NCBI GenBank assembly: GCA_015062435.1
Contig: SUUR01000005.1
Coordinates: 5,563-69,562, forward strand
Length of the DNA: 64,000 nt
Reading direction: 5' to 3'
Source of the DNA: Alphaproteobacteria bacterium
Lineage (GTDB): Bacteria > Pseudomonadota > Alphaproteobacteria > RF32 > CAG-239
Made by a program: the position numbers. Shown in pieces: positions 12,001-24,000 of this stretch. Position 1 is the stretch's first letter, and each line of letters begins with the position of its first letter.

Positions 12001-15000
12001 CAATCAAGACCCATTTTGTTAGCAATCTTAGATGTCTTAAGAGGTGCAGGAATAACTGATTTTACTGCAGATTTTGATGATTATACGATAACGTTTGATG
12101 CTGATTATGAGCTAAAAAACAGAATTATGAATTTGATAAGCTATTTTGAAGATAATCCTATTTTAATTGCTTATGATGTAAGAGTTTTTACAATCTATCC
12201 TTATAATAAAAAAGATATTGATTGGCAAAGTATGCTAAATGCTTTTGATTTCGGCTCAGTTAAAACGGCTCAAAGCGGAGTATTGGGAAGAATATTGACC
12301 ACTTCTAACGATATAAATGTAGATAGCTTAAAAACTTTTTTAGGCTCACAAGCAAAGGTTAAGCAAGTTGCTGAAGGAAAATTTGTGGTTCCTGACCAAT
12401 GGTTTTCACGCTTTGATATAGGTAAGTGTGCAAACAAATATTCTGCCGAGCATAATCTTTCAATCCTAGCAAAATCATCTTTTGAGCAAGGAAACAAAAT
12501 ATTTGCAGATATTACTTTGGAAGCCAGAGATGGAGAAATAACTCAATTTAGTACTAGAAGTAAACTCGGTGAAAACTTCTTGATTATAGGAATTCCCAAT
12601 GCAATTTTCGGAATCAACGAGCCTAAGTCTGAAACTATTGTTTTTATGGTACCAAGAATTATAAAAACACTCAAAACATCTAAACATTTAGAAAATAACA
12701 TCTAAGGATTTTGTGATGACAGATAACAATACATATATACAAAGACCAATGCTAAAAAAAGTTAAAAGACCTTTGAACAGAGCTCCCCAAAACCCTAGCA
12801 TGCCGGTTAAGCACGCTACAATATCAGAACAAAAACCGGTAGCATTACATAATCCGTTTAATCAAGAGAAAAACTCTTTACAAAAAAATTTTTCATCTGA
12901 TGAAGAACTGAATCTTGATAAACTTTTGGACAGTGAGTTACCAGAACCTCAAAAACAAGAGGTTAACCAACATCCGGAATTTCTTCAGGAATTTGATGAA
13001 AATGAAAACAATAATGTTGCAACAGCATTGCCGGCTTATTTAACTAAAAACTCATTATTATTACTTGCCTGCGTCATTTTATTTATAGGAATTCTTGGCG
13101 GAAAATTTATATTTGCAGAATCTAAAGTTGTACGAAACGGTTTGCAAGGTGTGGTATTTAATCCGGAAGTTCCCAGAGGCAGAGCAAGATGTGGTGTGGC
13201 TGAAAGATCTCAAGGGTGCGTATTATATGTGATGAATCCGCAACGACAAGAATTGGTTGCCAGAGATTTTTATGACTTAGCATCTCAAATGACTGGTAGG
13301 CAACGTTTTGTTATTGAAACGGGAAATATGCGCTATTCAAACACCAAAATCCGTCCCGGTGACATCGCTCAATTAAATATTCCTCCATTATAATCGGTAG
13401 ATGATTATGTAATTTCGGTTACCGCACGAAGGTTTCCATCTCTGTTGATTTGGACAACTCTGAGTTTTTGGCGCATTTCTTCAATGGTTTTTTTACGATC
13501 AATAGTTGGATATGTGTGTAAAATTCTATCTGTGAAAGCTTGATATGCAGCTTCTGAATTTTCAGCGTGAATGGTTGCTAAACAGTTATCGTGTCCTGAC
13601 CCCATAAGTTCCCATATTGCACCGGCGTTTCCGGTTGAAATCTCTCCTCCGATAATGGCATCAGGAGTGAAACGTACGACCAAGTCAATAATCTTAGCGT
13701 AATTAAGTGCATTGGTTTGTTCAGTACGAGATAAAACTAAGTGTACTCTGTTAGGATGTGGAACAATAAGTTCTCTGGTATCTTCTATAGTCAGTATTCT
13801 TTTGTTTATATCTAAAATTTTAAGAAGATTGTTCAAAAAAGTAGTTTTACCTGTTGATGTTGCACCGGAAACTAAGATATGGTCACCTCTTTTGATACTC
13901 AATAATAAACGCTCATAAGGATCTTCAGGATCTTTAATTTCTTTAAGCACATTGATTTTATGTAGTTTACTTCCTTGTGTTAACCCATAATCTCCCAACC
14001 CAAAAGCAACGTCATCTGCATGGACACGAATTGTTAAGGCGATACCACCGGTTAAGTCATCATTATCATACATAACATTACGTCCACATATTGCAGAAAA
14101 ACGATGTTCTCCGGGTATTGCAGCATATACAACAGGGTTACCTTCAACGGGGTCAAAAGGTAGCTCATAGGTATTAGCTATGATATATAATAAATCTGTA
14201 AGATATTCTTTGGTGAGCTTTTCATCTTTGTGCATTACCCATGGATATGCTCTTTTTCCTCTCAACCTCAACCATATTTGTCCGGAACGATTGATTGCCA
14301 CTTCCTCGATATTGTCTTGGTTGTACCAGTAAGATAATGGTCTTAAAACAGATTCTAAAACAGCAAAACTCATGGTTATCTCCTAAAATAGGGCGGGTAT
14401 ACTACTATCTGCAACGTCTTCATCTTTTGATGAGGTTTTGCCGGTAGATGGCTTTTGAGATGTTTGGCCTGATGATGTTGTCGGCGGAGGAGGAGGTGCT
14501 ATGTATGTTGGATTTTTCTTTTTTGGAGCTCCATCATCAATAAGCGGTGTTGGCCGATTAGCTTGTACTCCACCATTCCCATCGGCACTGTAAACTACAT
14601 CTCCACCGGCAGAAACTGCAGTAGATGACGGCTGTGGTGCTCCCATACCGATAGTTATATCACCTTTTCGTTTGTCATCAATCAAGACATTGGGTTTTTG
14701 AGAATTAAATGTTGCACTTTCTTCGGCATCTCTATCAACTGTTCGCAACCATAAATCAGTATTGGGAAATACGATGATTCTGGTTCCGGCCGGAATGTAT
14801 GTCAGAGCTTTAATATTAGCCTTGTCTGCCAAAATTTCATCAAAGACCTGATTCATTTCTTGAATAAAGTTATCACGAGCATCATTAGCAGCTTGTTGAC
14901 GAGGAGTTTCATCTTCCCCTTCGCCATCATCTTTAGGAGCCATAAAGTATGATGTGGCACTAGTCAAGCTTGTAGTAAGAACCGGCAATGTATATTTCTT

Positions 15001-21000: not shown

Positions 21001-24000
21001 TTACCATCTTTATCCAACAAAAGTTGAGCCATTTCACCAGCTTTACCGATAACATTACCATCCAGATCAACCAATGTTCCGTCTTCTAACATTTTACCGA
21101 TTATGTTACCATTAAAATCTCGAACATTACCATCTTTATCTATATAGCCGATAACATTACCGTCTTTATCATAAGCCAAACGGAGCTTATCTCCAAGTTT
21201 ACTAAACATCGGCAGATCACTAACAATGTTTCCATCTTTATCTATATAACCAATAACTCTGCCATTTTTATCCATTAAAAGCTGAACTTCTTCTCCGGCT
21301 TTACCGATTACGTTACCATCTAAGTCAACTAACGTTCCGTCTTCAAGCATTTTACCGATAACATTACCTTCAAAATCCCGAACATTGCCATCTTTATCTA
21401 TATAGCCGATAACATTGCCGTCTTTATCATAAGCCAAACGAAGTTTATCTCCAAGTTTACTAAATATTGGTTGCTCATCAACCGTGGCAATGATTTCCCC
21501 TTTATCTCCCAATATTAAAGATTTTTCTTCTCCGGCTTTGCCAATTACATTACCTTTATTATCGACAATTGTTCCGTCAGCTCTGGCTTTGCCGATGATA
21601 TTACCTTTTGAATCCCTAACGTTGCCGTTATCATCGATATAGCCGATAACATTACCATTCTTATCTTCGGCTAAGCGATATTTATTTTTACCAACTTTTC
21701 CTTGTGGGTTATCTATTCTGATAACATTACCATTATCATCAATTCGCCCAACCAAATTACCTTCTTTATCAACAACACTGCCATCAGGCATCACAACCCC
21801 AATGACATTCCCATCTTTATCAACCGCAACTTTTCCGGCTTTACTAACTCTCCCGATAATATTACCGTCAACACCTTCAACAGATCCATCAGGACGTACT
21901 CGTCCAATAATATTAGAATCTTTATCTACCACTGTGCCATCAGGCAAAACTCGTCCGATAATATTTCCGTTATTATCATATACAAAACCGGTATCAACCG
22001 CTTTACCTATAATATTTCCGCTTAAATCTACCACTGAACCATCAGGCAAAACTCGTCCGATAACATCTCCATCAACATTAACAACACTATTGTCCGGACG
22101 CACATGTCCTATAACATTACCGTACGAATCGTATACTGCTCTACGGTTATCTGCGACGCCCAGAACATTTCCTTTGTCATCAACAATAAAGCCGTCAGAA
22201 TCAACTTTACCAATAAGATTTCCATTAAAATCTCTGACAAAACCATCTTCATCAATAACGCCTATTATCTTTCCATCAGGGCCTATTGCATTGCGAATCG
22301 GTTTTCCGTCTTTTGAAATCGTAGGTGCTCCGGTATCTTCACAAATTGTGCAATCTTCTTTTACAACAGCCGAACCGGTAACCGGTACTTTAGCTGATTT
22401 TACATTAGCTTGTCCCAAACTGGTTTCATACCATGATATGATGAAATTATTTTGAACATTACCGGCAATAACGGGGGCCCAATTCATCGTGATGTTGCAA
22501 GTTTGGTTACCACTAAGAACGAGATCTTTACAAGTATTATTAAAAGTAAAACCATCTGCCGGAGGTTCTGCAAGCTCCACACTAACAATTTTTACAGATA
22601 CTTTTCCGTTAGTACCTAAGGTAAGAACATTTCTGGCATCAGTGCCTAATACAACCTCCCCCATCGGAACAGGGTTCGGAGTTGTTGTCAGAGGGATTTC
22701 ACCTTCAATTGTAGAAAACTCTATGTTTTGAGATAGCGGCAATGAACTATCAACATTTAAGACGTCAGCATTATCATTAAAAACAGGTTCAACATATTCA
22801 TCTACGGGGCGATTGCTTTTTATGAGAAGAAATATGCCAAAAATAAATACAGTAAGAGAAATAATGCCAATCGTTAAAATTATACGATTAGTTTTTTTTA
22901 CATATTGCTCCGAGTGTGTTAAATTTTCTTTTGCCATATCTGTTTATCACTGAGTTCTGACCACACTACAAAATACTCCGTTGCGACCTAATGCACCGCA
23001 CAATTTATCACCTTCAGATAGTGAATTTATTTTTCCTACTCTCAGGTGAAAGAGCTCTTTTCCTCTGCCATCTGCAGGAGCATCTACCGAGAAAAACGGC
23101 TCATATTTTCCGAGTTCATCAGGATATTGAACGGTTAACTTATCCCACAATTTTTCAAGATTGGTAACATTGTCATCGGTACCCAACTCAACAGAAATAT
23201 TAGAATTATCTCCATCGGCAAAACCTGAACCGTATCCGAATCGACTAACATAGGGATTTGCTCCAGAAGAATTGTTGTTACTTATTCTTTGCATCTTTGA
23301 AAAATCAAAACCCGATGAAGCATCATTCATATAGGCAGAAGAATACTGCGGAACAATTATATCTCCTCCCCCAACAGGAATATTGGTTTCACCAATAACT
23401 TGTTGTGTCACAGGCATTGGCATAGTAGGCGTTTGCCCCATTGGATCTCCAGACATGTTCGGTATCGCAGGAGACACTTCCCAACTTGGCGGCAAATAAT
23501 CTCTGGAATCTATTCCATATTCCAAACCGGCAGCATCAGAACGACGCAATTTGATACAGATAATTCTTTTGCCGTTTCTTAAAACCAAATCTCCCACACC
23601 TTCAACTATTATAAGTCGATTATCAGGCCCTTTTGTTCTAAAACCGATAGGAACTTCAACCCTTTCAACAATCATACTAACAACTGGGCGTTGCATCATG
23701 TTTAATGATTTTTTACCAAGATCAATGTATGTAAAGATATCATCTCTCCAAACTCTTTCAGGCGCAATAACAACGTCATCAGGATTGGGAACGTAAACTT
23801 CTAAATCAAAACGAAATTTTGACGGATCCAACGGAATAGTCTTCAACCAATCACTTTGCTGAAAACGTCTGGTGTAGTTTGCATCAACAGACTTTCCTCC
23901 TGATGTTGTTCCTCCGGTATGAGCTCCCAGCACACCTCCTGATGCTCCGCCCAAATTAGATGCCGCTCCTCCTTCAGGACCGCCAATAACATCAATATCA

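Follow-up and report, generated by a model that had tools for sequence, protein, structure and literature searches.

Canonical VirB10/TrbI proteins of type IV secretion systems (T4SSs; Agrobacterium tumefaciens VirB10, pKM101 TraF, R388 TrwE, and Helicobacter pylori ComB10) are single chains of ~380-460 amino acids (aa) that comprise a cytoplasmic tail, a transmembrane anchor, a proline-rich linker, and a barrel, and the usual T4SS copy number is ~14 per machine. VirB10 has been described as the sole known subunit to connect the inner-membrane complex with the outer-membrane core complex (PMC12857230). Two repeat-expanded forms have been described. CagY, from the 'expanded' Cag T4SS of H. pylori, has a VirB10/TrbI C-terminal domain preceded by a very large repeat region, which comprises alpha-helical modules (PMC2581425), derives from near-identical DNA repeats between which in-frame recombination takes place in the course of infection (PMC2194252, PMC5954226), and has been proposed to reach a periplasmic collar (bioRxiv 10.1101/2023.03.22.533729). 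DotG, from the Legionella/Coxiella Dot/Icm system, has a transmembrane anchor, a variable repeat-rich middle, and a C-terminal TrbI domain; its length varies from ~1,000 to >1,500 aa between species (PMC6761968), and its middle domain has been proposed to form a 13-fold collar, minimal systems being without a collar (bioRxiv 10.1101/2023.03.22.533729). Here, we analysed a 64,000-nucleotide (nt) stretch of contig SUUR01000005.1 (hereafter, the window) from an uncultured gut alphaproteobacterium, which encodes a divergent P-type T4SS. We report that the VirB10 of this system is best explained as a protein split between two adjacent genes and expanded by ~125 copies of a 17-residue unit. Repeat-expanded VirB10 as such is known from CagY and DotG; new are the type of repeat, the unprecedented size (2.2-2.9 thousand aa, kaa, combined), and the gene fission. 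As the third, structurally unrelated repeat-expanded VirB10 after CagY and DotG, it suggests that T4SSs have repeatedly become 'expanded' through enlargement of the periplasmic part of VirB10.

The T4SS locus lies on the minus strand and encodes, in order, VirB4, several unknown proteins, VirB8, a second VirB8, VirB9, a 1338-aa open reading frame (ORF; hereafter, the partner), VirB10, and VirB11. As in canonical systems, VirB10 contains a full-length TrbI domain and its gene is located in a virB-type operon between virB9 and virB11. In contrast to canonical systems, the membrane anchor and the barrel are located on separate polypeptides, and the proline-rich linker is replaced by arrays of predicted hairpins totalling ~2,100 aa. 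Both ORFs are intact. The features of the two genes, with the evidence for each in brackets, are as follows:

18921-22937, minus strand: partner, the putative N-half of split VirB10, 1338 aa, with cytoplasmic tail, transmembrane anchor, immunoglobulin (Ig)-like module, and ~65 predicted beta-hairpin units (ORF, Pfam, orthologues, fused homologues)
22815-22937, minus strand: partner aa 1-41, conserved cytoplasmic motif NLTHSEQYVKKTNR and single 21-residue transmembrane helix (sequence)
22293-22814, minus strand: partner aa 42-215, Ig-like module with four conserved Cys (weak family matches)
18966-22292, minus strand: partner array, aa 216-1324, ~65 units of 17 aa, each a predicted short beta-hairpin (autocorrelation, segmentation, AlphaFold2)
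20778-21737, minus strand: partner hot spot, aa ~401-720, length-variable between species (alignment gaps, Tandem Repeats Finder, TRF)
18921-18965, minus strand: partner aa 1325-1338, AGYVLQEVAKNRRN, plus stop, where conservation within the protein is highest (alignment)
14383-18918, minus strand: VirB10, the putative C-half of split VirB10, 1511 aa, with signal peptide, ~60 predicted beta-hairpin units, linker, TrbI barrel, and tail (ORF, Pfam)
18835-18918, minus strand: VirB10 aa 1-28, putative Sec-type signal peptide, NIVTVADA/QEITAINF, with the slash at the putative cleavage site (sequence)
15859-18834, minus strand: VirB10 array, aa 29-1020, ~57 units (autocorrelation, segmentation)
15799-16161, minus strand: VirB10 hot spot, aa ~920-1040, indel-prone array end (alignment gaps, tandem duplications)
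15331-15858, minus strand: VirB10 aa 1021-1196, non-repeat linker, three further units (aa 1055-1095), and Gly-rich linker, conservation 0.52-0.78 (sequence, alignment)
14722-15330, minus strand: VirB10 aa 1197-1399, TrbI/VirB10 beta-barrel core (Pfam TrbI, Protein Data Bank, PDB, matches)
14383-14721, minus strand: VirB10 aa 1400-1511, poorly conserved Pro/Ser/Thr-rich tail with the terminal motif SIPALF (sequence, alignment)

To collect relatives, we scanned the VirB10 core against one genome per GTDB species, which identified 138 genomes with a relative, and we fetched 80 loci. Where the flanking sequence sufficed, 76 VirB10 orthologues (1421-2372 aa) and 75 partner orthologues (1071-1579 aa) are intact, with both intact in 73 species, and the partner is located directly upstream of virB10 in 75 genomes.

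A first-pass annotation of the window, made by inspection of the sequence, had described the partner as a separate protein inserted between virB9 and virB10. Comparison with a sister clade points elsewhere. A search with the partner retrieved its own orthologues and ~85 proteins that contain both Bflower and TrbI matches. In particular, 58-62 fused proteins of 2,015-2,338 aa carry the partner-type cytoplasmic motif, transmembrane helix, and Ig module at the start and TrbI at the end, so that both halves are encoded as one chain. Homology extends along their length: fused protein P0135 is colinear with the two window proteins, with its aa 1-1243 matching partner aa 1-1326 (E = 5e-121) and its aa 892-2154 matching VirB10 aa 41-1399 (E = 4e-136). 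Synteny agrees. Split loci always have the order VirB9-partner-VirB10-VirB11, and the fused loci L084, L085, and L088 have the order VirB8-VirB9-giant VirB10-VirB11, with nothing between virB9 and virB10. When 1.84 billion representative proteins were searched exhaustively for partner aa 1-215, only partner-type and fused-type proteins proved to carry the complete module, at positions 1-~205. The partner is thus best explained, from these sequence comparisons, as the N-terminal, membrane-anchored half of VirB10 and not as an unrelated insertion.

A neighbour-joining tree of 151 TrbI cores places the split cores (n = 82, each with at least 63% identity to the window core) and the fused cores (n = 58, 45-55% identical) in sister clades, with ordinary single-chain transmembrane-TrbI proteins that lack the repeat as outgroups. 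Every other VirB10 has an anchor of its own, which makes fission the more parsimonious direction of change and the split the more parsimonious derived state, the tree alone being no proof. Two traits are confined to the split form: a conserved signal peptide with the site AxA/QEITAI, and a coupled stop and start. Specifically, a TTG of virB10 follows the partner stop by 2 nt and an ATG by 8 nt, and a GGAGG inside the last codons of the partner provides a Shine-Dalgarno sequence for virB10; this spacing, together with the GGAGG, indicates that the two genes are translationally coupled.

The topologies predicted for the two proteins are complementary. The cytoplasmic motif and transmembrane helix are kept in all partner orthologues, and the fused forms carry SSSEQYVKKSNR and a transmembrane helix at the same end; by the positive-inside rule, partner aa 1-41 would form an N-in bitopic anchor as in canonical VirB10. 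The Ig-like module that follows gives weak, sub-cut-off matches to ASH (8e-4) and choice-of-anchor D (2.4e-5), belongs to a domain type repeated up to 35 times in giant multi-Ig proteins, and has nearly invariant Cys residues; four more invariant Cys (784, 835, 857, and 908) are located in the partner array. In VirB10, a hydrophobic segment followed by AxA/QEITAI(D/N)F is kept across the clade of the window, and identity inside the signal peptide is low (0.30), as is usual for signal peptides. The N-terminus therefore reads, as the first-pass annotation had noted, as a signal peptide, probably a cleavable one of Sec type, and this putative signal peptide stands in place of the usual arrangement of cytoplasmic tail, transmembrane anchor, and proline-rich linker. 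The 1511-aa protein does not carry those three elements on its chain, and tail, anchor, and barrel come together only in the partner-VirB10 pair or in the fused relatives. The topology and the even numbers of invariant Cys both point to a periplasmic location for the two arrays.

The ends at the split are unusually conserved. The last 20 residues of the partner show 90% identity across 75 species. The first ~160 residues of mature VirB10 (aa ~35-195) show a conservation of 0.68-0.73 and ~72% identity, on a level with the TrbI core; by comparison, the interior of the VirB10 array has a conservation of 0.26-0.54, and the array interiors of both proteins are ~40% identical across 75-76 species. 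Such conserved new ends are likely candidates for a non-covalent interface between the halves. A helix is predicted at the partner C-terminus in the long AlphaFold2 model described below and has low confidence in the short one.

The C-terminal part of VirB10 is a recognisable TrbI core. Pfam TrbI (PF03743) matches aa 1201-1391 with E = 5.5e-32 (111.6 bits, cut-off 35; profile positions 2-188 of 188), and the core is 76-89% identical across the clade of the window. The first-pass annotation had placed the start of the core near aa 1130; the match begins at aa 1197-1201, and aa 1130 is located in the Gly-rich linker. That linker, the Pro-rich tail, and the example repeats quoted at the time are all present in the translations. 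Among PDB sequences, VirB10 matches ComB10 (2bhv, 8.9e-19) and, more weakly, CagY, TrwE, and TraF, with CagY fragment 8cb2 matching the core at E = 2e-5. NCBIfam ComB10/VirB10 models match (4e-31 and 3e-28) under their curated cut-offs (T4SS_VirB10, 98.6 bits versus a cut-off of 220; ComB10, 108 bits versus 300). By these profile matches, the window VirB10 is a divergent member of the superfamily and not an equivalog. A helix-loop-helix-like stretch, QQLFKKYTLPVLTTSL…AANDARDNFIQEMNQVFDEILADK, is present by inspection at the expected position of the core and appears to resemble the outer-membrane 'antenna'. At the extreme C-terminus (14383-14400), the window and L001 have SIPALF, L002 has SVPQLF, and L088 has the more degenerate PPAYF; the motif resembles a C-terminal aromatic signal or docking peptide.

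The two arrays comprise the same 17-residue unit. Identity autocorrelation shows a sharp peak at lag 17, with harmonics at 34 and 51, in both proteins (z = 13.8 for VirB10 aa 1-1130, z = 16.4 for partner aa 220 to the end), and shows no lag-17 peak in the VirB10 C-terminus or the partner N-terminus. In-register segmentation yields ~65 units in the partner (aa 224-1324) and ~57 units in VirB10 (aa 40-1020) plus three more (aa 1055-1095), for a total of ~125 units per pair. One consensus, (V/I)-I-G-x-(V/I)-x-x-D-G-x-V-V-D-x-x-G-N, describes both arrays, in line with the shared 17-residue repeat noted in the first-pass annotation; the repeat is present in no further ORF of the window. The unit logo, with D-G at positions 8-9, D at 13, and G at 16, fits the [DNEQ]xxG tip motif of the beta-flower fold, a fold defined from AlphaFold models as short hairpins with that tip and no PDB similarity (Durairaj et al. 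2023, PMC10584680). Three Pfam families exceed their curated cut-offs in both proteins: Bflower_2 (PF21785; VirB10 2.7e-60, 201.6 bits; partner 1.6e-80, 266.7 bits; cut-off 38), Bflower (PF21784; VirB10 5e-15, 56.3 bits; partner 2.7e-35, 121.7 bits; cut-off 25), and DUF3659 (PF12396; VirB10 3.5e-8, 33.6 bits; partner 2.1e-28, 98.4 bits; cut-off 24.8). The earlier suggestion of DUF3659 is thus verified, with PF21785/PF21784 being the better assignment.

To predict the fold of the array, we used AlphaFold2 on partner aa 205-1338 (1,134 aa) with 36 orthologues and, separately, on a 160-residue C-terminal module. The models are all-beta, with a predicted local distance difference test (pLDDT) of 81.4 and a predicted TM-score (pTM) of 0.68 for the long construct and a pLDDT of 91.3 and a pTM of 0.81 for the module; the high pTM values indicate that the array is ordered. 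DSSP assigns a 5-residue and a 3-residue strand pair to each 17-aa unit. The pLDDT is ~90 for the C-terminal 600 residues and 35-60 in the hot spot. Searched with Foldseek against the PDB, the 160-aa module has no significant match (best E = 0.014, TM-score 0.17), and against the viral structure library BFVD it has no meaningful match (TM-score up to 0.23); the partner sequence has no match among PDB chains. The array is thus predicted to be an ordered all-beta hairpin structure without a global match among solved structures, and its units belong, by Pfam match and by their predicted hairpin and tip motif, to the beta-flower families, in agreement with the models of Durairaj et al. Beta-flowers (PF21784/PF21785/PF21786, clan CL0395) have been described as shallow 8-, 10-, or 12-stranded barrels with 4-, 5-, or 6-fold symmetry. 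They share with the window arrays the strong Pfam matches, the short hairpins, the tip motif, and the lack of a similar solved structure, and differ in being small, single ~96-aa domains, some of them lipoproteins, in contrast to arrays of 60-65 hairpins in a T4SS core subunit. The first-pass annotation had envisaged a large periplasmic or surface beta-solenoid or fibre: its periplasmic option agrees with the topology of both arrays, and its beta-structure with the ordered all-beta hairpins of the models, whereas the global shape matches no solved structure.

We consider it probable, with some reservation, that the two genes are one giant VirB10 after fission, the arrays of which are periplasmic, rebuild the inner-to-outer-membrane bridge non-covalently, and form an enlarged collar. 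The stretch that separates the membrane anchor from the TrbI barrel would, in an ancestor of this gut lineage, have been replaced or expanded by an Ig-like module and >100 copies of the 17-residue beta-flower/DUF3659 hairpin, yielding VirB10s of 2.0-2.3 kaa. In the clade of the window, the giant gene would then have undergone fission into two adjacent genes: the upstream gene would have kept the cytoplasmic motif, the transmembrane anchor, the Ig-like module, and ~65 hairpins, and the downstream gene would have gained a cleavable signal peptide and kept ~60 hairpins, the linker, and the outer-membrane barrel. With both arrays in the periplasm, the halves would bind each other non-covalently, with the highly conserved ends that arose at the split as the probable contact, and the bridge would thereby be restored. 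At ~14 copies per machine, the arrays would surround the channel with an enlarged periplasmic collar or cage, a role suggested by analogy with CagY and DotG, and the length-variable hot spot in each array would change the size of the structure between species.

Several observations weigh against this reconstruction. The split and fused clades are sisters and not nested, such that the polarity rests on outgroup logic, and the branch that supports monophyly of the fused form is short (0.009, neighbour-joining only). The fission point was not located: the C-terminal module of the partner and the mature N-terminal module of VirB10, compared with 62 fused proteins, match many repeats at 30-45% identity, and the C-terminal tail and helix of the partner have no counterpart in those 62 proteins by BLAST. 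The lengths of the two arrays do not co-vary robustly across 73 species (Pearson 0.45, outlier-driven; Spearman 0.09, not significant), in a test that used stop-to-stop ORF lengths, for which length differences modulo 17 are uninformative. Tandem duplications have periods of 1, 2, 3, 4, 5, 6, and 9 units and do not point to a fixed 5-unit domain. Finally, a collar role is assigned by analogy with DotG and CagY, for which it is itself a proposal.

The widest form of the proposal, that a two-piece VirB10 works non-covalently and that ~125 beta-flower hairpins in each of ~14 pairs build a multi-megadalton periplasmic structure of unseen fold, in a chromosomal T4SS conserved across a common gut lineage of humans and animals, is a possibility that we put forward tentatively. 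If true, it would provide the first biological role for the orphan beta-flower fold and a natural experiment on whether the proposed energy and signal transmission by VirB10 needs an unbroken chain. A bridge cut into two genes is a ready-made test of the dependence on covalent continuity, for which the close relatives with the uncut form serve as a control. The arrays also place the beta-flower fold, represented so far by AlphaFold models without function, inside a defined molecular machine.

An alternative that is compatible with a split-VirB10 origin is that the hairpin arrays bind glycan or peptidoglycan and fix the machine in the sacculus, without forming a structural bridge. For the 160-aa module, Foldseek places LytC choline-binding repeats and the carbohydrate-binding repeats of Clostridioides difficile toxin A at the top, as weak matches, the VirB9 of the locus ends in a weak SPOR-like match (E = 0.035, under threshold; profile positions 9-76 of 76) that may make its C-terminal extension a candidate for peptidoglycan binding, and a protein with an M23 peptidase domain is encoded nearby. 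VirB10 aa 134-244 (18187-18519, minus strand) show a weak match (E ~2e-3) to the MORN-like beta-hairpin N-domain of human SETD7, which fits the remark of Durairaj et al. that certain relatives of beta-flowers carry annotations as MORN-repeat variants. Set against this, the structural matches are all insignificant (E of at least 0.014, TM-score up to 0.17), the SPOR match is sub-threshold, no known peptidoglycan-binding motif was detected, and ~125 hairpins per pair are far beyond the needs of a tether. We regard tethering of this kind as unlikely.

CagY raises the further alternative of a variable surface or adhesin element, in which the arrays would face the host or target cells and recombination among the repeats would tune or disguise the T4SS. 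The first-pass annotation had named CagY as the best precedent for a repeat-expanded VirB10, and as an analogue it is a fair one, recombination in CagY being the precedent (PMC5954226, PMC2194252). Each array does have a hot spot of very different length between species. In the partner, aa ~401-720 have 50-98% gaps relative to orthologues, and tandem duplications of other species map there too; in VirB10, length changes across species are located at aa ~920-1250, the tandem duplications mapping to aa ~950-1250, and in the 2,300-aa forms they reach aa 1640, with expansions of up to ~900 aa. The tandem duplications in the hot spots have periods of 17-153 aa, and tandem DNA repeats that reach 150 nt and 90% identity are present in 6 of the 76 VirB10 and 1 of the 75 partner genes, counts that are a lower bound since short-read assemblies fail at such repeats. 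Outside the hot spots, however, the gap fraction is ~0, and most of each array is constant in length and position. The DNA copies in the window are mostly 60-75% identical, and the sole recent duplication, in the partner hot spot, comprises 258 nt (86 aa, 5 units) in 1.9 copies at 82-87% identity (TRF 20971-21464, period 258, 84% match). In addition, the partner is anchored in the inner membrane, and the VirB10 array precedes the outer-membrane barrel on its chain and is Sec-exported, so that both arrays should be periplasmic. A variable surface element is accordingly very unlikely. The arrays are plastic in evolution; rapid switching in the manner of CagY, which the first-pass annotation had raised, is unsupported in this genome. 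The two repeats are also unrelated, as it had supposed: CagY has alpha-helical, Cys-containing modules encoded by near-identical recombining DNA repeats, whereas the window has 17-aa hairpins, all-beta in the AlphaFold2 models, encoded by mostly old copies divided between two genes. DotG likewise differs, having a 10-residue or pentapeptide-like repeat on a single chain, in contrast to ~125 17-residue units and gene fission. We also considered whether one flower generally equals one duplication unit and rejected this as a rule: global autocorrelation shows 17 and its harmonics only, the 86-aa super-repeat is confined to partner aa ~400-700, and other species duplicate 1, 2, 3, 4, 5, 6, or 9 units.

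The 1338-aa gene could instead encode an independent accessory protein, inserted into the operon and merely of the same repeat family, with the 2.2-kaa proteins being secondary fusions. For sister clades, the tree alone gives a fusion in one lineage and a fission in the other formally equal parsimony, and the junction is untraceable in the fused proteins. All outgroup VirB10s, and VirB10s in general, nevertheless have an N-terminal transmembrane anchor on the TrbI chain; the split VirB10 lacks this anchor and has a signal peptide instead, the partner has exactly the topology of the missing anchor, and the N-terminal module of the partner type occurs nowhere else. We judge an accessory origin to be highly improbable and retain fission as the favoured explanation.

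A Rhs/YD-type cocoon, in which the arrays would fold into a closed shell around cargo or a toxin, is suggested by family and structure matches and is largely refuted by their details. The partner, and only the partner, matches YD_repeat_2x (TIGR01643; 2.2e-20, 72.3 bits, cut-off 15.8) and RHS_repeat (PF05593; 7e-9, 36.3 bits, cut-off 22), with scores in which no single stretch passes the cut-off by itself. In Foldseek, the 1,134-aa model matches Rhs cores, teneurin, and Tc toxin BC shells best, with E-values down to 7e-44. These matches have TM-scores of 0.05-0.10 and root-mean-square deviations of ~30 Å, indicating that only local hairpin geometry is common to the array and Rhs/YD proteins, together with a D-x-x-G-N-type motif, and that a closed shell, as in type VI secretion system Rhs proteins, teneurins, and Tc toxin BC, is not reproduced. 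The period of 17 aa and the strands of 3-5 residues are shorter than in those shells; neither protein has a DPxG[LW] autoprotease motif, a toxin domain, a plug, or cargo; the partner ends right after its array and VirB10 runs on into TrbI; and the 160-aa module has no Rhs match.

That one giant gene was broken by a sequencing or assembly error within repeats, where the public short-read assemblies of relatives are indeed interrupted or N-gapped, is essentially excluded, since the window region has no Ns or frameshifts, the stop, coupled start, signal peptide, and conserved partner C-terminus recur in >70 independently assembled species, and intact orthologues of similar size in other species-level genomes (76 for VirB10, 75 for the partner) argue against mis-assembly.

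Public short-read assemblies break, collapse, or are N-gapped in the VirB10 hot spot at L001 9900-10001, L002 9590-10080, L087 9908-10001, and L088 9974-9984. Because of such breaks, databases hold many falsely 'short' VirB10 entries for this lineage. We examined 'short' VirB10 relatives of 430-850 aa as a possible third architecture and rejected them, as they are located at contig ends, N-gaps, and collapsed repeats.

All 80 fetched loci are from metagenome-assembled genomes (MAGs) of uncultured gut Alphaproteobacteria, which we take to belong to GTDB order RF32. Their sources include human cohorts, roe deer, sheep, chicken 'Ca. Scatocola' (placed by NCBI in Rhodospirillales incertae sedis), 'CAG:495', and 'uncultured Azospirillum sp.', and these widespread gut bacteria occur in humans, ruminants, rodents, and poultry. 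The first-pass annotation had pointed to Rickettsiales and Holosporales for comparison; no named member of either order is among the relatives found. Database names for these proteins are automatic only: 'DUF3659 domain-containing protein', 'TrbI/VirB10 family protein', and 'YD repeat-containing protein'. Full-text literature searches returned nothing that links beta-flower or DUF3659 repeats to T4SSs, no account of VirB10 as a split protein, of fission of its gene, or of YD repeats in it, and nothing on the T4SS of this gut lineage (RF32, CAG-239); a search for DUF3659 returned one paper, which is unrelated.

The genes that adjoin the pair are as follows:

13405-14373, minus strand: virB11 ATPase, immediately downstream of virB10 (TIGR02788 4.5e-41, under the curated cut-off; Pfam T2SSE 1.1e-20, over the cut-off)
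22947-24527, minus strand: virB9/CagX, 526 aa, immediately upstream of the partner, with a long C-terminal extension (Pfam CagX 1e-11)
24532-26350, minus strand: two virB8 paralogues, 240 and 263 aa (Pfam VirB8 1.4e-20 and 1.4e-14)

VirB9/CagX is about twice the usual size, and its C-terminus, …GKELFHLRVGKINSLSEGDKLCGALGRNGVFCSVVRTQ (mainly 22947-23180), is conserved in L001, L002, and L088. The order of the virB8 pair is the same in L001, L002, L085, and L087, and L084 and L088 show a single VirB8 match. Two large ORFs of the T4SS locus have no family match (1272 aa at 26325-30143 and 771 aa at 36958-39273), and VirD4 was not recognised among the window genes. Positions 826-7299 on the minus strand contain two more TrbL/VirB6-like genes (763 and 444 aa) and the gene for the protein with the M23 peptidase domain (945 aa); a plus-strand block that includes a double-helix-turn-helix regulator (7561-8532) is located between these genes and virB11.

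The T4SS region is flanked by housekeeping genes. A complete-looking type IVb pilus cluster adjoins the T4SS locus at 40654-51437 on the plus strand and comprises a TcpQ-like protein, a secretin, PAP_PilO, a T2SSE ATPase, a T2SSF platform protein, and two PilS/bundlin-type pilins. In L003 (3176-12134) and L085 (17864-25407), the T4SS locus is located directly beside the alphaproteobacterial flagellar genes FlaF, FlgK, FlgI, FliX, FliI, and FliJ, and L085 encodes a VirD4-type coupling protein ~9 kb upstream.

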